This document shows, piece after piece, positions 779 through 41,650 of a stretch of DNA of 42,026 nt (the stretch's first letter is position 1; each line of letters begins with the position of its first letter). Source of the DNA: a virus (Duplodnaviria > Heunggongvirae > Uroviricota > Caudoviricetes); IMG/VR virus record IMGVR_UViG_2734482779_000005, positions 1 through 42,026 of that record; one strand, given 5' to 3'. Position numbers and translations under genes: made by a program. The notes under the pieces are model-generated. The model did not search any database and was not told the origin of the DNA. It saw nothing but the letters and a program-made list of their open reading frames with translations.

Positions 779-1070
779 TCTATCAATGCTATTAGCAGGG
801 AGATATATCACCAGAGTTTAATGTGTGATTTTTTATTTATCGTCGAACCTGGATTGTTTATCATTGGCCTTAACAAAGTTAACGGCTAATAAGATTATTT
901 CCATCACTTCGTGAGAGCTTCATGCCTTGAGAGGATCTCAATTTTCTTTTGCAATGAGACAGGCGCTTCCTGTTGTTATGGTATAGTACCCCGCTATTGA
1001 GCCTCCTGAACAGTGAAGCTGAATAACATAACCCCATGATATATTGATAAAATAATCTCTACATTTGAAA

Positions 1071-1193
1071 ATGCACGGTAATTCTGAAATGCAAAAAATC
1101 AACCAAACCAGCGCAATGCCTGAAAAAACTGACGTTCACTGGAGTGGTCGGTTTAGCGTTGCACCAATGCTCGATAGGATGTACCGTTGTTGA
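1071..1193 (+). pseudogene. dusA: Displaced 5' fragment of dusA (attL side); 40 codons then stop
   Basis: atgcacggtaattctgaaatgcaaaaaatcaaccaaaccagc...atgcctgaaaaaactg...cggtttagc...atgctcga aligns at roughly 80% identity with the start of the intact dusA at 40613; the frame terminates at tga 1191-1193. Confidence 0.75.
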
Positions 1194-1318
1194 AAAACAA
1201 GCAGTTATACACTCTGTGGGAGCCTATTGGGAACCCGGCGTTTTCATTTCAAGGTGTAATCCATACGCGGCTTAAGAATGAGATATAATGCGACTTTTAG
1301 TGTTCCGCTTGAGAGGCC

Positions 1319-1855
1319 ATGATGCTTACCCTGGACGAGATAGGTCAATCAGTACGTAACAATATCCAGTTGATTATTGATCATGTCGGCTTACCTCTTG
1401 CTGTTGGTCCGCTCAGTGATGATGATTACAAGATTCTGTGTGGTGGCTATGGTGAGCTTGAATGGGACTATGCGTTAAGTACCTATGGCAACTCCAGAGA
1501 AAAGTATGAGTTCTGCATAAAACTTGTTCAGCAAGGTCGGGTTCAGGGAATACCATCAGGAGCAGCAATTTGTGTTTATGGGGTTGAAGAAAACATCTTT
1601 CGTATCCATATGATCGAAAGGTTTTCTAGAGAAGATGAATCTCACCCATTGAAAGGGCGCATGGTTTTACTCACTCTTATGAGTGCTTTTATATTTTGTA
1701 AAGCTGTTGAATGTAAAGTTGTCCACATTGTAGAGCCAGTACCAGAACTGGTGCAGTATTACGAGTCTTTTGGTTTCCGCATGGAACAGTGCGGTTATGT
1801 GATGTCGGCAGTCATTGATGAGCTGCAGGATATCTTTCTTAAATTTGCTCAGTAG
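1319..1855 (+). CDS. Hypothetical protein (178 aa), cargo gene next to attL
   Basis: ORF track; first gene inside the left prophage end; no family recognised; appears more AT-rich than phage core genes. Confidence 0.45.
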   Translation: MMLTLDEIGQSVRNNIQLIIDHVGLPLAVGPLSDDDYKILCGGYGELEWDYALSTYGNSREKYEFCIKLVQQGRVQGIPSGAAICVYGVEENIFRIHMIERFSREDESHPLKGRMVLLTLMSAFIFCKAVECKVVHIVEPVPELVQYYESFGFRMEQCGYVMSAVIDELQDIFLKFAQ

Positions 1856-2051
1856 GTATAGACGAGAAGGGTCTACAAATTGTAGGATACCCGTCCAGAT
1901 TACCTTAAAGGTACATCTATGGCAGTCGTTTTGTGCTTAAACTACTAAGAAACGATGTCACCAATCGACATGATCGATTGGCATAAGTTAGCGAAACAAG
2001 CTAGCTTTAAAGAAAGGGTTAGAGACGCCTTTACTGTCTCGGGAGTTTTCT

Positions 2052-2225
2052 ATGAAAGATCAAAAAGCAACCAAGCCACAGGTTAAGTTCGACACAATGA
2101 AAGCATTCGCAGGTATGGGTGCTGCTGTTGAAGTTCTGATGAAGGCTGCTCCTAATGCGTTCACTCACGCTACTGTCTCTGGTAAAGAGCAGCAGGGTAA
2201 GCTTCGTCGTCGCAAAGCAGCATGA
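2052..2225 (+). CDS. Small hypothetical protein (57 aa; MKDQKATKPQVKFDTMKAFAGMGAAVEVLMKAAPNAFTHATVSGKEQQGKLRRRKAA)
   Basis: Hand-translated ORF below the track threshold; GGGAG Shine-Dalgarno at 2041-2045; immediately followed by a strong terminator. Confidence 0.3.
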   Translation: MKDQKATKPQVKFDTMKAFAGMGAAVEVLMKAAPNAFTHATVSGKEQQGKLRRRKAA

Positions 2226-2244
2226 TCATAGCTGGTGCTTTTTG

Positions 2245-2270
2245 AAAACCCGCCTTCAGGCGGGTTTTTT
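2245..2270. terminator. Bidirectional rho-independent terminator
   Basis: aaaacccgcc-ttca-ggcgggtttttt: GC-rich stem with A-run on one side and T-run on the other; sits between convergent genes. Confidence 0.7.
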
Positions 2271-2272
2271 CT

Positions 2273-2554
2273 TTAGTGATGTTCTTTGTCCTTCTGTTTG
2301 ACTGTTCTGACCTGTTCCCACTCGATACGTCCTTCTTCTCGCCTTTTGTCTATGTATTCCGCAAGATCTTGAATATTGATGCAACGTTTTGCTTTTTGTG
2401 ATGTGCCGATGCGATATGTTGGAACGGGCAACTTACAAGCGTTTGCTTTTGCTTCTGCCGTGGCTGGACTCATACCAAAGTACTTTTGGCTAACTGCTGA
2501 GAGTTCAATGTTTGGGGTATTGAATTCAGCCATCAGTAAAAACAAGGTGTTCAT
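2273..2554 (-). CDS. PrtN-like (pyocin-activator family) phage transcriptional regulator
   Basis: N-terminus MNTLFLLMAEF... resembles the PrtN family as I recall it; start chosen at the ATG preceded by GGAGA (track ORF extends to 2581 with a GTG). Confidence 0.45.
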   Translation of the reverse strand: MNTLFLLMAEFNTPNIELSAVSQKYFGMSPATAEAKANACKLPVPTYRIGTSQKAKRCINIQDLAEYIDKRREEGRIEWEQVRTVKQKDKEHH

Positions 2555-2590
2555 AATTTTCTCCATCAAAACCGGCTGCACCCGGGAAAA

Positions 2591-6841: not shown

Positions 6842-7204
6842 TTAACGACCTGCTGCGCGGAGTTTTCCGTCAGGTTCACCGGCAAGAGTCAGTAATTGTC
6901 CCTGGTCTTCCTGCAGAATAGTCAGGCGACCACCGCGATTGACATACATCGGCGTTTCGGTGGTGTCTTCTTCGGAAATTTTCCCGCGGTTAGTTGGGCG
7001 AACATATGAGAGTTTGTGTTTGATTTTCACACTGTTCTCATCAAACGGTTCGATTTCCAGATTGAGTGAGACCTTCCCTTTGGTTTTCGTGTTCATCACA
7101 CCGGAAGCGACCTCACTGAGAACTGCGCCGATTTTGGTTTCAAATACGCCGCCGTCCAGCTCCCCGATAAATGCCTGCACATCAGTACTGCGTTCGCTAG
7201 CCAT
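6842..7204 (-). CDS. yfdP: YfdP-like prophage protein (about 120 aa)
   Basis: Track ORF runs to 7390, but the ATG at 7204 is preceded by GAGGAG and gives the expected ~120-aa product starting MASERSTDV. Confidence 0.45.
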   Translation of the reverse strand: MASERSTDVQAFIGELDGGVFETKIGAVLSEVASGVMNTKTKGKVSLNLEIEPFDENSVKIKHKLSYVRPTNRGKISEEDTTETPMYVNRGGRLTILQEDQGQLLTLAGEPDGKLRAAGR

Positions 7205-7252
7205 TTTGCTGCTCCTCATCATATCGACCCTGCAAGGTCGGTTGGTTTCTCC

Positions 7253-7341
7253 ACAAAACAGAGAAGAACACCTGCGGTGGCAGCCGCCCGGATGGATTGG
7301 GTTATGAGCCCGTCGTCCGGTGATGTTCTTCTCTGTTTTGT
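7253..7341. repeat. Long inverted repeat (18-bp perfect arms acaaaacagagaagaaca / tgttcttctctgttttgt, 46-nt loop) in a noncoding leader
   Basis: Read directly: arms at 7253-7270 and 7324-7341, extended by cc/gg with a 3-nt bulge. Confidence 0.6.
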
Positions 7342-7852
7342 AAAAAGAGCGGTACCAGCCGGAAGCAAGTGTACAAACTGGTACCGCCAAAGCAGTGGCT
7401 GTTGTGGTGACCGGTGCTGATCTCCGGCTTGCGGTTATTTCAGACTCTCACGGGCGTTTAATTGCCCCGCCGAACAGCTCTTTTCCGCAATAGCTGCAAT
7501 GTCTTTCGCGCATCAGCCTGCGCCTTCACCACAACGCTGAGAGCACTTAGCCAGTTACGGCACCACACTTTGTCGCGGCTCCATAAATGCCCTCATCGTT
7601 GCACCCTGGTCTCTTCCCAGGCGTCAAACCGGATCGCCACGCTGGTTAGGCGTCTTATCAGCATCATCATTGGCTTGCACATTCCGGCTACCTGGTTTGT
7701 TTGCCCGAGCAAGGAGTGGATTGTCCCCTTTAACGTCCCCAGACCGCTAACGACGCATGTGCCATACGCCGTGTTACAACCAAATTTTGTTTAATCTTGC
7801 CTGTGACATGTTTCTTTTAGATACATTATGTATCTCAAGGGTACATTGTCAA

Positions 7853-36200: not shown

Positions 36201-36848
36201 ATGCATCGTATAGACACGAAAACCGCGCAGAAGGATAAGTTCGGCGCGGGTAAGAACGGTTTTACCCGTGGTAACCCCCAGACCGGCACGCCTGCCACCG
36301 ATCTGGATGATGACTACTTTGACATGTTGCAGGAGGAGCTTTGCAGCGTTGTGGAGGCATCCGGTGCCAGCCTGGAGAAGGGGCGGCATGACCAGCTGCT
36401 TACCGCGCTTCGTGCGCTGCTGTTAAGCCGCAAGAATCCGTTTGGCGATATCAAATCGGATGGCACGGTGAAAACAGCTCTCGAAAACCTTGGTTTGGGA
36501 GAAGCGGCGAAAAGGGATGTGGGCACAGGAGATAATCAGATACCGGATATGGGAGCATTCGCTTCTGGTTCGGGATGGTTCAGGCTACCAGGTGGATATA
36601 TTGTTCAGTTTGGCACTTTTTCAGGAAACACGACCCGCTTTATCAGTGGACACTTCCCTATACCATTCCCTAATCAACCGCTTGTTTCAGTCAGTGTCAT
36701 GTCTGATGCCGTTCAGTCAGAACCGTCGAATCCTGCACCGCTGGTTTTATCTGTAAATTTTGAACATATCAGTAATTCAGCGTGGCGTGTGGCAATCAGT
36801 GATATCTCTCAACAATACAGATTCAGTTATATTTCGATAGGACGGTAG
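36201..36848 (+). CDS. Tail fibre protein with invertible C-terminal receptor-binding region (current orientation)
   Basis: 215 aa; the crossover site lies at codons ~97-101 (…NLGLGE…), so the C-terminal ~115 aa belong to the invertible segment. Confidence 0.65.
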
Positions 36849-36850
36849 AA

Positions 36851-37291
36851 ATGCAGAAATATATTTTCAGTGCTGATAAAAATGCGTTTTTCCCTGTGGA
36901 GCTTAAAATTGCTTATCAGGAAGCGGGGAAATGGCCTGATGATGGAATCGAAATTGACGACACTGTTGCCGCCGAATTTATGAAGGAAGCACCAGAAGGA
37001 AAATACAGAGGTGTCATCGACGGAATGCCAGCATGGATTGATATTCCACCGCCAACTCATGAGGAACAAATTGCCGCAGCCGAACTGGAAAAGCAGCAAT
37101 TGATTAATCAGGTCAACGAATACATAAACAGTAAGCAATGGCCTGGTAAAGCGGCGATTGGTCGCCTGAAAGGTGAGGAACTGGCGCAATATAATTTGTG
37201 GCTGGATTACCTGGACGCACTGGAACTGGTCGATACTTCCGGTGCGCCAGATATTGAATGGCCTACGCCTCCGGCAGTTCAGGCCAGATGA
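36851..37291 (+). CDS. Tail fibre assembly protein (Tfa, current orientation)
   Basis: 146 aa; MQKYIFSADKNAFFP… and C-terminal …WPTPP… are typical of Tfa chaperones. Confidence 0.7.
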   Translation: MQKYIFSADKNAFFPVELKIAYQEAGKWPDDGIEIDDTVAAEFMKEAPEGKYRGVIDGMPAWIDIPPPTHEEQIAAAELEKQQLINQVNEYINSKQWPGKAAIGRLKGEELAQYNLWLDYLDALELVDTSGAPDIEWPTPPAVQAR

Positions 37292-37865
37292 CATCCGGCG
37301 CGGTGCTGGTATCTGTTGCCGTCACCGCGTCAATGTAATCCAGCACAGCGTTAAGTCGGGTGGTTTCTGCCTGCGTCAGCTTCCGCCCGGCCTGCAATTT
37401 CAGTTGAATCAGACTGATGGAAGCCATTGCAGTATCAATCAGTGACTGACGCTGTGCTTCTGCCGCGTCTACTGCGGCGCAATGCTGTGCCTCAGTATCG
37501 GTCACCCATTTCTCACCATCCCATTTATCGAATGGCGTTAACGGGGCGATAGTGGTTGTATTTTCAGGGTAATCACCCGGAGCTGTGATTTCTTTTGATT
37601 CTCCTGTTTCAGTGCTATATACCGTTTCACCACGGTGGTCTGGCACATATACCCATGAGTTAAAATCTGCAGAACGGCAGATTACATAACCAGCTTTATA
37701 TGAGTCAGGAGCATCTAAACAGGAGCATGCCGGAATGCCGACACCCACAGCAAGATATTCAGTTGATGTGAAAATATATTCCCGTGTTTCACCATCATAG
37801 TTATATACGGTGATTTCTCCGTTGTTTATTGCGTAGCCGTCTTTCCCCAAAATAGCTTGTTCCAT
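37263..37865 (-). CDS. Alternative tail fibre assembly protein (Tfa', inverted orientation)
   Basis: 200 aa on the opposite strand within the invertible segment; C-terminus …VIWPELPEA is Tfa-like. Confidence 0.65.
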   Translation of the reverse strand: MEQAILGKDGYAINNGEITVYNYDGETREYIFTSTEYLAVGVGIPACSCLDAPDSYKAGYVICRSADFNSWVYVPDHRGETVYSTETGESKEITAPGDYPENTTTIAPLTPFDKWDGEKWVTDTEAQHCAAVDAAEAQRQSLIDTAMASISLIQLKLQAGRKLTQAETTRLNAVLDYIDAVTATDTSTAPDVIWPELPEA

Positions 37866-38333
37866 TTATGCAGTCCTCACAATGTAGTTAAATGCAATGT
37901 TGCGCGGGCGAGATTCATCACCACCGCTTGGCATCGATGTCAGCCCTGATGACGAACCAGTCCATCCATTGGCTGGACGGTTCATAAATCCTTCACCCGA
38001 TGTGTAATATTTCTTCGCGTAGATAGATGTTGTTCCTGGCACGCCACCAGCAGTTCCCCCGACTGCGCCAACGTCATCATGAACGTGCGACAAGTTTTGA
38101 CTGTTTTGATGTGAAAGCAGTGCGCGCCCACTATCGGCACCGCGCCCATCATCCCAGCCACGAATAAACTCACCACGTAAATCAGGCAATTTATTTGTCG
38201 GGTAAGCCTTTGCCAGTTCCGGGTATTCTTCAGGAGAAAAAGCCGCACCATTGCATTTCAGCCAGCCTGTTGGCGGAGTGGCTGAAGGCCACGGAACAGG
38301 CACACCAACGGGTAATGCCGAACCTTCTCCCAA
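37866..38333 (-). CDS. Alternative tail fibre C-terminal segment (promoterless, silent in this orientation)
   Basis: Reading frame continues open into the right crossover site; …PVGVPVPWPSATPPTGWLKCNGAAFSPEEYPELAKAY…LPDLRGEFIRGW… resembles the Mu/P1 fibre variable-domain pattern. Confidence 0.6.
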   Translation of the reverse strand: MGEGSALPVGVPVPWPSATPPTGWLKCNGAAFSPEEYPELAKAYPTNKLPDLRGEFIRGWDDGRGADSGRALLSHQNSQNLSHVHDDVGAVGGTAGGVPGTTSIYAKKYYTSGEGFMNRPANGWTGSSSGLTSMPSGGDESRPRNIAFNYIVRTA

Positions 38334-38409: not shown

Positions 38410-38973
38410 ATGATTTACGGGTATGTTCGTGTATCAACAAATCATCAGGATACAGAGTTGCAACGTCTTGCACTTGAGTCAGCTGGCTGTGAGCGAATTT
38501 ATGAAGAATATGCCAGTGGCAGAACAGCTAATCGCCCTGTGTTAAAGGAATTAATTTCGGTGATGAAAAGTGGAGATGAGTTGATTGTCTGGAAGCTAGA
38601 TCGGATAGGGAGAAATGTGCTACATGCGCTATTGATGTTTCAAAATCTGCACGAAAAAGGCGTTAATTTTCGGAGTATTACAGATGGTGTAGACCTGAAA
38701 ACAGCAAGTGGTCGCTATAATTTCCGTAATATTCTTTCTGCTGCGCAGTATGAATCTGATTTGAATAGCGAGCGAACTTTAGCTGGTTTGGCTATTGCCA
38801 GATCCAAAGGCCGGATTGGTGGGCGTAGACCGAAGTTTAGCGACGAGCAGTGGCAACAGATGGGAGCGCTCATAGCGGCAGGGAAATCACGGCGTTATGT
38901 TGCACGTATCTATAACGTTGGGCTATCAACCCTATATAAACGATTTCCTGTTACTGGCATTCAAACGAAATAA
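38410..38973 (+). CDS. pin: Serine DNA invertase (Pin/Gin/Hin/Cin family)
   Basis: 187 aa; N-terminal MIYGYVRVSTNHQDTELQ with catalytic-serine context and C-terminal HTH; adjacent to the invertible segment. Confidence 0.85.
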   Translation: MIYGYVRVSTNHQDTELQRLALESAGCERIYEEYASGRTANRPVLKELISVMKSGDELIVWKLDRIGRNVLHALLMFQNLHEKGVNFRSITDGVDLKTASGRYNFRNILSAAQYESDLNSERTLAGLAIARSKGRIGGRRPKFSDEQWQQMGALIAAGKSRRYVARIYNVGLSTLYKRFPVTGIQTK

Positions 38974-39116: not shown

Positions 39117-39365
39117 TTAGTGAACAAACCACTCGTCAGCAGATTCCCAGGTATCTTTCAGAGTCTCCTGAACAAAAGTTTTTGCAGAATCCTTATCTGC
39201 GGTGCGTGTAACAGAAAGGCCATCGTTGCTGGTGGCTTTTACGATCACCTCTACATCGTCATAACGTTTACTGATGCGTCGGGTTAATTCTTCCTTTAAC
39301 GCATCCACAGCACCGGTTGGCATTTTAGTCATTTTTTCTTTGGCTATGCAGATTTCAATACGCAT
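39117..39365 (-). CDS. dinI: DinI-like DNA-damage-inducible protein
   Basis: 82 aa; MRIEICIAK…[11 protein letters not shown] parallels E. coli DinI (MRIEVTIAK…TWESADDWFV). Confidence 0.8.
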
Positions 39366-39380
39366 AAAAGTCCCTCTATA

Positions 39381-39426: not shown

Positions 39427-40524
39427 TCAAGAGGTCTTATTTCTGCTCCTTTGGAGCTCTTCAAAACGATTATGTAAAGATTTCGGATACAGTTCGGTAT
39501 ATACCTGCCATAGCACGTTTAATGAACGATGCCCTGTGACCTGGGCGACTTCCTCAATACTAAAACCAGCCTCAAATAAGCGACTTGCCCCTTCTCTACG
39601 CAAATCATGGTATCGCAGATCCTTAATACCTAATTTGCTTCTTACCCTCTGAAATCCCGCAGTAACAGAAGTGCTGTTATATGGAAAAATGAATTCCGAT
39701 TTTTTGGGCTGTCGTTGGACGATATCCCAGGCTTCCCCAAGCAAGGCTACTTTCATGTGGTTGCCTTCCTTTTTGCGTGGATCTTTCCTGTCTCTTACGA
39801 GTATAGATTTTTGTTCCTGGTCGAGATCTTCCCATCGTAACCGGCATACTTCTCCGATCCGCATACAGGACCACACAGAAAATTTGAGGATATCAACGAA
39901 CGGAATTTTTGAGCATTTATGAGTAGATCGTTGTTGAAGGCCTTCAATGAGCATGTCCAGTTCATCAGATGCTGGTCTACGATTACGACGGTTTGATTTA
40001 CCAATCAAACCAAGTTTAAGTAGATATGGGCGAGCGCTTTTCGCCGGGTTTGATGTGTAATTAATTCCGTATACAGGTTTGGCCGCATCCAGAACACTGC
40101 CAAGATAACTAACATCGTGGCTGACTGTTGCTGGACCTGCACCAGCGTTGTTTCTTAGCCTGCAATGTTCAATTACGTCATTTTCTGTCAGTTCAGATAG
40201 TTTGATCGCGGAGATGTCACTATCCATAAGCAGTTCCAGCACATATCTTTTAGTACGGCCTGCTTTACCTCCGGCATTTGGGTCATTTAAATATTTGTGT
40301 AGTAAGTCACGGACTGTAAGTCCGTCAACTGCATTTGATGATGGAATGCCATATAGATCTAATTCCATCACTTTCTGTGTTCCCCATGTTTTGGCATGAG
40401 CATGTTTAGGGAATGTTTTGCTTTCCCTGTAAGTGATAACACCTTTTTCTTTGATAATCACATTACAGCGATAGCGTGGTGTGCCATCGGATTTTAGTCG
40501 TTTCTCTATGTTATAGTACGCCAT
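39427..40524 (-). CDS. int: Tyrosine integrase (dusA-specific class)
   Basis: 365 aa; C-terminal catalytic region …HDLRREGASRLFEAGFSIEEVAQVTGHRSLNVLWQVY… (R/H/R/Y signature); divergent from and adjacent to dusA. Confidence 0.85.
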   Translation of the reverse strand: MAYYNIEKRLKSDGTPRYRCNVIIKEKGVITYRESKTFPKHAHAKTWGTQKVMELDLYGIPSSNAVDGLTVRDLLHKYLNDPNAGGKAGRTKRYVLELLMDSDISAIKLSELTENDVIEHCRLRNNAGAGPATVSHDVSYLGSVLDAAKPVYGINYTSNPAKSARPYLLKLGLIGKSNRRNRRPASDELDMLIEGLQQRSTHKCSKIPFVDILKFSVWSCMRIGEVCRLRWEDLDQEQKSILVRDRKDPRKKEGNHMKVALLGEAWDIVQRQPKKSEFIFPYNSTSVTAGFQRVRSKLGIKDLRYHDLRREGASRLFEAGFSIEEVAQVTGHRSLNVLWQVYTELYPKSLHNRFEELQRSRNKTS

Positions 40525-40612
40525 TACACGACCTCGTTATTTCGGGTTCCCATAAAACGTGGGAACCTGTGCGGGAACCTAACGCGAGAAAAATAGCCTG
40601 AAATGTTCAAAA

Positions 40613-41650
40613 ATGCACGATAATCATGAAACACAAAAAATTAATCAAACCAGCGTGATGCCTGAAAAAACTGGTGTTTACTGGAATTCTCGGTTTAGCA
40701 TTGCTCCTATGCTCGACTGGACGGACAGACATTGCCGCTATTTCTTGCGTCTGCTTTCCCGCAGTACGTTGCTTTATACCGAAATGGTGACCACAGGGGC
40801 GATTATTCACGGTAAAGGTGATTATCTGGCGTACAGTGAAGAAGAACATCCGGTAGCGTTGCAACTAGGCGGTAGCGATCCGGCGGCGCTGGCGCAGTGT
40901 GCAAAGCTGGCAGAAGCGCGCGGATATGATGAGATCAACCTGAATGTCGGCTGCCCGTCTGACCGGGTGCAGAACGGCATGTTTGGTGCGTGTCTGATGG
41001 GTAATGCGCAGCTGGTTGCCGACTGCGTGAAAGCGATGCGCGATGTGGTGTCGATTCCGGTGACGGTGAAAACGCGTATTGGCATCGACGACCAGGACAG
41101 CTATGAATTTCTCTGCGATTTCATCAATACCGTTTCCGGCAAAGGCGAGTGTGAGATGTTCATCATCCACGCACGTAAAGCCTGGCTTTCGGGGTTAAGC
41201 CCGAAAGAAAACCGTGAAATCCCGCCGCTCGATTATCCGCGTGTGTATCAACTGAAGCGTGACTTTCCGCATCTGACAATGTCGATTAACGGTGGTATCA
41301 AGTCGCTGGAAGAGGCCAAAGCACACCTGCAACATATGGATGGCGTGATGGTCGGGCGCGAGGCGTATCAGAATCCGGGTATTCTGGCGGCGGTAGACCG
41401 GGAGATCTTTGGTTCCTCGGATACCGATGCCGATCCGGTGGCGGTAGTGCGCGCCATGTATCCGTACATTGAGCGTGAACTCAGCCAGGGGACGTATCTC
41501 GGCCATATTACCCGGCATATGCTGGGTTTGTTCCAGGGTATTCCTGGCGCGCGGCAGTGGCGGCGTTATTTAAGTGAAAATGCCCATAAAGCGGGTGCTG
41601 ACATTAACGTGCTGGAACACGCGCTCAAACTGGTGGCGGATAAGCGTTAA
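40613..41650 (+). CDS. dusA: tRNA-dihydrouridine synthase A (5' end supplied by the prophage)
   Basis: 345 aa; …NLNVGCPS… and TIM-barrel Dus family features; a second divergent copy of its first ~40 codons lies at 1071-1193. Confidence 0.9.

Follow-up and report, generated by a model that had tools for sequence, protein, structure and literature searches.

GNAT/RHH type II toxin-antitoxin systems (TacAT, AtaRT, KacAT, ItaRT) combine a GNAT-fold protein of ~175 amino acids (aa) with a small protein and occur on mobile elements. A gene pair of the same outline is located in a stretch of viral DNA of 42,026 nucleotides (nt), IMG/VR record IMGVR_UViG_2734482779_000005, the whole of which is called the window here. 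The pair consists of orf178 (1322..1855, plus strand, opening at 1319; PHROG 4350), encoding a predicted GNAT acyltransferase fold, and orf57 (2052-2225, plus strand; PHROG 2741), encoding a small protein of 57 aa (WP_000654815.1). Both genes are annotated 'hypothetical' everywhere. The favoured reading, tentative as it is, takes orf178 and orf57 as one autonomous accessory cassette, a toxin-antitoxin-like or abortive-infection/defence-type moron that would serve the lysogen. It is carried by the fold of the larger protein, the obligate pairing, the mobility of the cassette, the selection on both genes, the codon bias, the RNA hairpins between the genes and an asymmetry of gene loss. Beyond these, we infer toxicity, its neutralisation, lability of the small protein, a promoter, an enzyme substrate and any anti-phage effect. 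A preliminary description of the window had listed the open reading frames (ORFs), a ribosome-binding site, a terminator and a PrtN-domain gene at coordinates that all hold, and its toxin/antitoxin idea for the pair is reasonable.

Pairing, mobility and loss of the two genes

An orf57-like ORF is located 100-300 nt downstream in every one of the 171 recovered loci with an orf178 homologue, down to ~40% identity and as far as Shewanella. A profile scan of genome contigs with a narrower alignment yielded 11 loci. The two ORFs had been presented as loosely adjacent. They form instead an obligate pair with a conserved putative promoter, a structured spacer and a terminator, and chance adjacency is effectively excluded. 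The identities of orf178 and orf57 homologues are 64% and 72% in Hafnia, 59% and 56% in Photorhabdus, and 55% and 46% in Xenorhabdus. More distant cassettes carry orf178 homologues of 46% identity in Brenneria, 43% in two Edwardsiella prophages and Shewanella, and 42% in phage Eeyore. The orf57 homologue of Eeyore (PP925821.1; L004 4798-4959) encodes 53 aa with 38% identity, ends in RVREAA and is unannotated in GenBank, where four other short ORFs are annotated in this stretch instead.

The cassette occupies at least six unrelated genomic slots. E. coli and Salmonella harbor it at the end of dusA prophages beside the PrtN-domain gene. A location between the antiterminator Q and the holin/lysis genes was found in many IMG/VR phages, Hafnia, Enterobacter, Franconibacter, Edwardsiella and Eeyore. 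In two Hafnia prophages with this slot (L010 3150-4109; L011 3051-4109), a RelA_SpoT-domain gene immediately upstream of the cassette is a match (E = 1e-112) to PDC-S33, a candidate defence family of PADLOC. Brenneria carries the cassette directly after a cI-like S24 repressor, Photorhabdus between tail genes, and Edwardsiella between the replication gene A (gpA) and the portal gene of a P2-like prophage. In Pseudescherichia and Escherichia sp., it stands on what appears to be bare chromosome, flanked by an EamA transporter gene on one side and thioredoxin-like/ferredoxin-domain genes on the other. A -10 hexamer and the terminator accompany the pair through these differing contexts. By its sequence features, with a predicted promoter and a terminator of its own, variable locations and a swappable position, the orf178-orf57 cassette corresponds to the definition of a moron. 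The earlier assignment to accessory cargo, as opposed to core phage genes, is borne out by the same pair in different slots of other phages and on the bare chromosome. Moron and defence slots (Q-holin, P2 gpA-portal, after a cI-like repressor, isolated on the chromosome) support the reading as a toxin-antitoxin or defence moron, as do the conserved -10 element and terminator that travel with the pair.

Two unrelated neighbouring morons, linked by shared descent only, would be compatible with the ~190 nt that separate the genes and with the occurrence of orf57 without orf178. However, the linkage survives divergence to ~40% identity and transfer among the unrelated slots in several genera including Shewanella, which makes this explanation highly improbable. 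Unlikely, to a lesser degree, is a factor for the benefit of the phage, that is, a host-takeover or anti-defence acetyltransferase acting mainly late in the lytic cycle, with the small protein as cofactor and no toxin-antitoxin logic. GNAT enzymes are common in phages, and the slot after Q and before the lysis genes, the commonest one outside E. coli and Salmonella, is expected to receive heavy transcription by the Q-modified polymerase. Yet a -10 element and a terminator of its own stay with the cassette, and in Q-slot loci a terminator precedes it. In the window, it runs antisense to the early operon, beside the host dusA promoter. The placements after a cI-like repressor and on a bare chromosome favour expression in the lysogen.

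A census of 5,426 complete E. coli genomes identified orf178 in 361 records (358 genomes, ~6.6%), always with at least 99% identity and always with orf57. orf57 was present in 566 records, leaving ~205 without orf178. In these, a Panacea-domain antitoxin gene (PF13274) and a 128-aa orphan gene replace orf178 and the leader of orf57 in the same slot, which reaches from a dusA remnant to orf57. The break point is located at the Shine-Dalgarno sequence of orf57, and some O157:H7 strains are included. Examples are E. coli O157:H7 NE 1092-2 (L104 1483-2684) and strain 13E0725 (L105 1480-2681). The Panacea loci keep orf57 and the terminator at ~98% identity, and L105 has an additional CoiA-like gene between orf57 and the PrtN-domain gene. 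Cargo of the toxin-antitoxin type is thus exchanged at the position upstream of orf57. orf57 survives alone and orf178 never does, as would be expected of a small protein that shields the cell from the enzyme. Obligate pairing, asymmetric loss and the Panacea swap together argue for the toxin-antitoxin reading.

The region match is split in some O111:H8 E. coli (labelled H7/H8; e.g. NZ_CP077519.1, NZ_CP077540.1) into two parts, with the IS3-family element IS1203 annotated within. Another O111:H8 genome (labelled H56) has a split orf178 match starting at nt 137 of the gene, which an IS1203 insertion in orf178 may explain.

The GNAT-fold protein and its small partner

The start codon of orf178 is probably the second ATG at 1322, yielding 177 aa instead of the 178 aa counted from 1319, because RefSeq WP_000956557.1 agrees and homologues begin with ML[TS]L. 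This ATG is placed 6 nt after a GAGAGG ribosome-binding site (1308-1313). The ratio of nonsynonymous to synonymous divergence (dN/dS) is ~0.04-0.06 for orf178, calculated against Salmonella and more distant copies, and 0.05-0.14 for orf57. Both ORFs are under strong purifying selection, and hence neither is a chance ORF.

The larger gene had been described as a member of no recognisable family, which holds at the sequence level. Sequence-profile searches for orf178 and orf57 in Pfam, NCBIfam, PADLOC and PDB (phmmer and hmmsearch) gave nothing useful. orf178 matched no Pfam or NCBIfam model, including the curated GNAT profiles such as Acetyltransf_1; PF00583 was touched by one of 71 family members only (E = 0.006). 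The top PDB profile match was a nourseothricin acetyltransferase (E = 0.015). Armadillo-repeat matches to the N-terminal helix, obtained in the orf178/orf57 search, were set aside as spurious. The predicted structure, on the other hand, gave a clear alpha/beta GNAT acyltransferase fold in fold comparisons. On this model, the GNAT fold of orf178 can be regarded as established, and catalytic competence appears plausible. Structural neighbours include the tRNA-acetylating toxins TacT3, TacT2 and AtaT, and the peptide N-terminal acetyltransferases NatD, Naa20, Ard1 and RimI are among the best ones; the comparison singles out no GNAT subfamily. E100 at the end of beta4 as well as Y148 and F153 in a YYxxFGF motif are invariant down to 32% identity, and G152 is nearly so. 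The loop H109-P-L-K-G113-R (H109-P-L-x-G113-R) is kept among closer relatives and is degenerate relative to the Q/R-x-x-G-x-G/A consensus. A weak profile alignment places this HPLKGR loop on the acetyl-CoA loop RGHGVGR of the nourseothricin acetyltransferase 5c82.

The small protein has a basic C-terminal tail ending in -AA and matches no Pfam family. Its good ribosome-binding site, noted before, is GGGAG at 2041-2045, 6 nt before the ATG. The codon adaptation index (CAI) of orf57 is 0.56, compared with a median of 0.28 and a maximum of 0.45 for 72 window ORFs (major capsid gene 0.40, orf178 0.29); the value, calculated with Sharp-Li weights, is indicative only, since orf57 is short and has just 53 scorable codons. 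CAI and the strong ribosome-binding site point to a very high expression, as judged from codon usage and motif. The AlphaFold2 model of orf57 alone is of low confidence (predicted local distance difference test 62), with short helices in residues 15-40 and disordered ends. Such predicted disorder is that of a protein that may fold on its partner. Small proteins of the family share the pattern FDT...G.A...L(M/L)KAAP...QGK, followed by a basic tail and the C-terminal -AA. The latter is kept in all complete homologues, including those of Photorhabdus, Xenorhabdus, Brenneria, Edwardsiella, Shewanella and phage Eeyore. ClpX recognizes C-terminal motifs such as -LAA of the ssrA tag and RRKKAI of MuA, the source reportedly being Flynn et al. 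2003. By analogy, the basic tail ending in -AA resembles ClpX degradation tags.

orf57 is 88-98% identical at the amino acid level where orf178 reaches only 66-89%. The synonymous divergence (dS) in Salmonella-type loci is 0.05-0.11 for orf57 versus 1.3-1.9 for orf178, i.e. more than tenfold lower, and values of 0.3-0.7 were obtained for orf57 where dS of orf178 is saturated. A role of orf57 as non-coding RNA only, suggested by the low synonymous divergence, was rejected: the changes are overwhelmingly synonymous, as the dN/dS range given above reflects, and no Rfam family was found. The GNAT toxins among the structural neighbours, the invariant Y148 and E100, and the codon bias, low dS, ribosome-binding site, disorder and basic -AA tail of orf57 are further support for the toxin-antitoxin reading.

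The conservation of orf57 can also be read as that of an enzyme substrate or regulator. The small protein would then be an effector on a conserved host machine (ribosome, RNA polymerase or protease), and the GNAT protein would acetylate it at the N-terminus or a lysine, or tune it. Extreme conservation of both the protein and the synonymous sites, together with optimised codons, is expected for an abundant protein on a conserved target. NatD, Naa20, Ard1 and RimI would be fitting neighbours, and the persistence without orf178 in the ~205 E. coli records suggests that orf57 may act alone. If modification is needed, however, orphan orf57 should decay, and the copies stay ~98% identical in nucleotides. 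If it is unneeded, the linkage in 171 of 171 loci is unexplained. The conserved host target is a hypothetical one in this reading. Such a pair is rather doubtful.

Toxins are usually the more conserved partner, and the Panacea antitoxin domain is a promiscuous neutraliser. Both facts would suit a reverse polarity, in which the small basic protein is toxic and the upstream gene encodes its neutraliser, which would be the GNAT protein here and the Panacea-domain protein in the other allele. Of the two partners, orf57 is the better conserved, the module replacing orf178 starts with a Panacea antitoxin domain, and a neutraliser-first order would be canonical. However, an enzyme with a CAI of 0.29 would need to titrate out a toxin that combines the top CAI of the window with a strong ribosome-binding site. 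The Panacea gene already has a 128-aa partner, sited between it and orf57. Disorder is predicted for most of the orf57 protein, and neither a membrane-spanning segment nor a known toxic motif was found in it. Reverse polarity is considered improbable.

RNA spacer, signals and proposed mechanism

The spacer between the genes, which forms the leader of orf57 (1856..2051, plus strand), is 196 nt long and structured. Enterobacteriaceae spacers measure 156-197 nt and keep several hairpins. Hairpin H2 pairs TACC with GGUA (1901-1904/1910-1913), H3 comprises 1961-1968/1974-1981 and H4 1987-1992/2000-2005, all on the plus strand. H5 pairs GAGAC with GUCUC (2022-2026/2036-2040, same strand) and ends one base before the Shine-Dalgarno sequence GGGAG. 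In a MAFFT alignment of 20 distinct sequences, 88.6% of the cells were paired, versus 19.5-40.6% with the 3' partners slid. Five pairs showed double compensatory changes. Both sides were changed in 24 cells versus 10.7 in shuffles, and none of 500 shuffles reached 24. A model-based alignment, which is fitted to the structure, gave 92% pairing and nine compensatory pairs; the slid-partner controls across both alignments gave 19-49%. Many one-sided changes are C-to-U or A-to-G and keep G-U pairs on the plus strand only, which argues for an RNA structure and not for a palindromic protein-binding site. In Enterobacteriaceae, the spacer is a folded RNA with covarying hairpins.

The minimum free energy of the window spacer is -58.6 kcal/mol (z = -3.7). 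Rfam 15 has no match in 1856-2051 at E <= 1; weak terminator-like matches only were obtained, at 2174-2277. The leader covariance model (R1) detected no spacer of Hafnia, Photorhabdus, Xenorhabdus, Brenneria or Eeyore. The RNA structure is thus not a universal feature of the cassette, being conserved only in the Enterobacteriaceae subset. The sequence UAGAC(G) at or just after the orf178 stop (1871-1876) and GUCUC before the Shine-Dalgarno sequence of orf57 (2036-2040) are complementary and invariant in all 14 aligned Enterobacteriaceae spacers. The minimum-energy fold pairs the region of the orf178 stop codon with the orf57 start region, and GUCUC can alternatively pair locally with GAGAC in H5. 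No covariation was found to support hairpin H1, located at the orf178 stop, or the long-range pairing AGAC:GUCU; they are either invariant or variable in register. From the folding model, a long-range translational coupling or switch between the orf178 stop and the orf57 start is conceivable.

A candidate -10 element TATAAT (1284..1289, plus strand) is located ~30 nt upstream of the orf178 start. TATAAT, TACAAT or TAAAAT occurs at the same distance from the start across otherwise unrelated upstream DNA, namely the att site, tR'-like terminators or the EamA gene. No good -35 element was seen upstream of it. The hexamer presumably has promoter activity. No terminator was found between 1193 and 1319, and consequently read-through from the stranded dusA promoter may occur. 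An intrinsic terminator with an 11-bp G+C-rich stem (2244..2269) separates the convergent orf57 and PrtN-domain genes. It folds on both strands, with -19.6 kcal/mol on the plus and -18.1 kcal/mol on the minus strand. The earlier label of a strong bidirectional terminator is plausible for this stem-loop and its T-run of six on the plus strand; the structure is asymmetric, as only four U follow the stem on the minus strand. A terminator-like hairpin follows every orf57 homologue examined.

In the favoured toxin-antitoxin or defence reading, the GNAT-fold protein would be an acyltransferase that is produced in small amounts and could do harm. The tiny protein, present in large excess, would bind and restrain it. 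orf57 is probably short-lived in this scheme, given the likeness of its tail to ClpX degradation tags. The folded spacer, which has a hairpin just before the Shine-Dalgarno sequence, may set the high ratio of small protein to enzyme, via mRNA processing or stability or via translational coupling. Transcription of the cassette could, in this prophage, also come from the displaced host dusA promoter.

Several observations weigh against this scheme. In most toxin-antitoxin pairs, the antitoxin evolves faster. The conservation of orf57 runs opposite: dN is 0.02-0.05 for orf57 versus 0.2-0.26 for orf178, the small protein being far more conserved. This suggests, from sequence comparison, that orf57 may also contact a conserved host target. 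Enzyme-first order, a spacer of 100-250 nt and the apparent absence of a DNA-binding domain set the predicted pair apart from the known GNAT toxin systems. The acetyl-CoA loop of orf178 (HPLKGR), as aligned, is a degenerate form of Q/RxxGxG/A. The proteins of orf178, orf57 and the PrtN-like gene have no match in PADLOC-DB v2.0.0 at E <= 1, and the CAI argument carries the limits given above. It is somewhat doubtful that the cassette represents the founding member of an undescribed two-gene toxin-antitoxin or anti-phage family, composed of a GNAT-fold effector that is an orphan in sequence, an abundant and labile neutraliser of ~57 aa and a covarying RNA that sets their ratio. In such a family, the ratio would possibly be set by long-range coupling of the orf178 stop (UAGAC) with the orf57 ribosome-binding site (GUCUC), and the neutraliser would be conserved for some second reason.

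The prophage end and described systems

The cassette follows a remnant of the host gene dusA. A DUF2713 gene of the E. coli chromosome (1-708) lies before the dusA promoter region. The displaced native 5' fragment of dusA (1065..1193, plus strand) comprises ~35 codons and ends at a TGA stop created by the insertion. A sequence scan found a promoter-like site upstream of the fragment at 1044-1072. The equivalent stretch in other strains is annotated in RefSeq as a partial or truncated tRNA-dihydrouridine synthase pseudogene. At the other end of the prophage, an integrase gene (39427-40524, minus strand) abuts an intact dusA (40613-41650, plus strand), whose 5' end is supplied by the phage. The integrase and intact dusA at 39427-41650 identify the cassette end as a true prophage end far from int. 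The location had been called attL-proximal. It is a genuine prophage end following the dusA remnant, but as the int-distal junction it does not correspond to the attL of lambda.

The att crossover lies at ~1179-1186, with the sequence ATGCTCGA. In an alignment with the phage-supplied 5' end (40613-40715), the two dusA copies diverge past ATGCTCGA (1179-1186 versus 40708-40715). A substitute promoter region and the first ~35 dusA codons come from the phage (40525-40715), and the phage-supplied start shares 74% aa identity over 35 residues with the displaced native one (1065-1186). The lysogen would thus produce a DusA with a slightly different N-terminus under phage-derived expression signals. 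The same architecture has been described for dusA-specific integrases (PMC4482086). The prophage is nearly identical to the lambdoid phage mEp460 across the region examined, and the orf178 and orf57 proteins are 100% identical to mEp460_023 and mEp460_024.

The PrtN-domain gene (2273-2581, minus strand; RefSeq start 2554, 93 aa) is convergent with orf57 and, as previously stated, closes the leftward early operon as its last gene. Its product contains PF11112 (E = 4.2e-23, residues 12-83 of 102) and matches PHROG 1300 'excisionase' (E = 8e-40). Homologues of prtN occur in 64% of the dusA-specific islands (PMC4482086). The PrtN-domain protein RdfN is an experimentally shown recombination directionality factor that drives the excision of dusA-specific islands; its need for excision was shown for IMEVchUSA3 only (PMC8409611). 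No other xis candidate was found beside the integrase. PF11112, the PHROG 1300 match, the RdfN precedent and the integrase at the other end that lacks another xis candidate make an RdfN-type excisionase, working with the dusA-specific integrase, the most likely function by analogy, instead of a pyocin-type activator. The earlier 'PrtN-like activator' is thereby kept in its domain and revised in its role. Outside dusA contexts, the gene is absent next to the cassette in all cases, and it is consequently a neighbour and not a part of the cassette.

Elsewhere in the window, a 187-aa ORF (38410-38973, plus strand) starting with MIYGYVRVST looks like a Hin/Gin-type serine DNA invertase. It adjoins oppositely oriented short ORFs (36827-38333, tail-fibre region), which suggests an invertible host-range segment. 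A small gene between this ORF and int (~39130-39370, minus strand) corresponds to the DinI-like protein of mEp460 (mEp460_021), and the mEp460 annotation has a promoter between the DinI-like gene and int. sRNA-17 is an ArcA-modulated small RNA of E. coli K1 RS218 (PMC7719688). A location of this published RNA of mEp460-like prophages in the cassette region was rejected, as it maps to 7343-7535 of the window. The site belongs to the early/immunity region and contains exact matches to the primers and Northern probe of sRNA-17 (7349-7387 and 7425-7474). It shares sequence with an ORF of the minus strand (6842-7390) and with one of the plus strand (7462-7794).

Two 'hypothetical proteins' in hundreds of pathogenic E. 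coli genomes (O157:H7, O111, ST131-type and K1-type hosts of mEp460-like prophages) turn out to form one conserved functional unit. The unit is also present in many Salmonella genomes and other Enterobacterales, and it combines an enzyme fold that can be recognised with an architecture out of the ordinary. If the toxin-antitoxin or defence module is true, the GNAT-based systems gain one whose partner is non-canonical and which has a control element at the RNA level. Such cargo would then be exchanged at the int-distal end of dusA prophages, PanAT being the alternative allele. The correction of the label 'pyocin activator PrtN' to probable excisionase matters for the prediction of prophage inducibility. 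Literature searches with the accessions, the PHROG ids and GNAT defence found no description of the pair.

The GNAT/RHH systems resemble the pair in a further respect. The conserved Tyr of orf178 is located in a C-terminal YxxxGF motif, where the catalytic Tyr of the toxins sits. In AtaT, this is presumably Y144, a position judged in part from the fold comparison. In contrast to these systems, orf178 has no sequence match to any GNAT Pfam model, and orf57 lacks an RHH/DUF1778 domain, is located downstream behind a structured spacer of 196 nt and is more conserved than the enzyme. No ORF with an RHH/DUF1778 domain was found upstream of orf178, where the att site and the dusA remnant lie. By the sequence features compared, orf178-orf57 would not be counted as a GNAT/RHH type II member. 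PanA/PanT (Panacea-domain) pairs use the identical slot and are an allelic alternative to orf178 in ~205 E. coli records, but they share no homology with orf178 and are absent from the window. RdfN elements likewise encode a small PF11112 protein, insert at the 5' end of dusA, bring a replacement for the lost part of the gene and have their integrase adjoining dusA. The host element here is a lambdoid prophage similar to mEp460, unlike the IncC-mobilisable islands. The PrtN-domain gene ends a pL-type operon, so that its control is presumably phage-specific, and its excision role is predicted. Classical lambdoid morons and prophage defence hotspots (lambda rexAB and bor, stx in the Q-S slot, the P2 tin/old region) are likewise self-contained promoter-terminator units between core modules. 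The cassette resembles them in that it occupies the Q-lysis slot, a site beside cI and the gpA-portal region of P2, and differs in its new gene content. Prophage morons, or candidate toxin-antitoxin or defence pairs built on a GNAT fold, have precedents as a type of element; new here are the family, its partner protein and the RNA leader.

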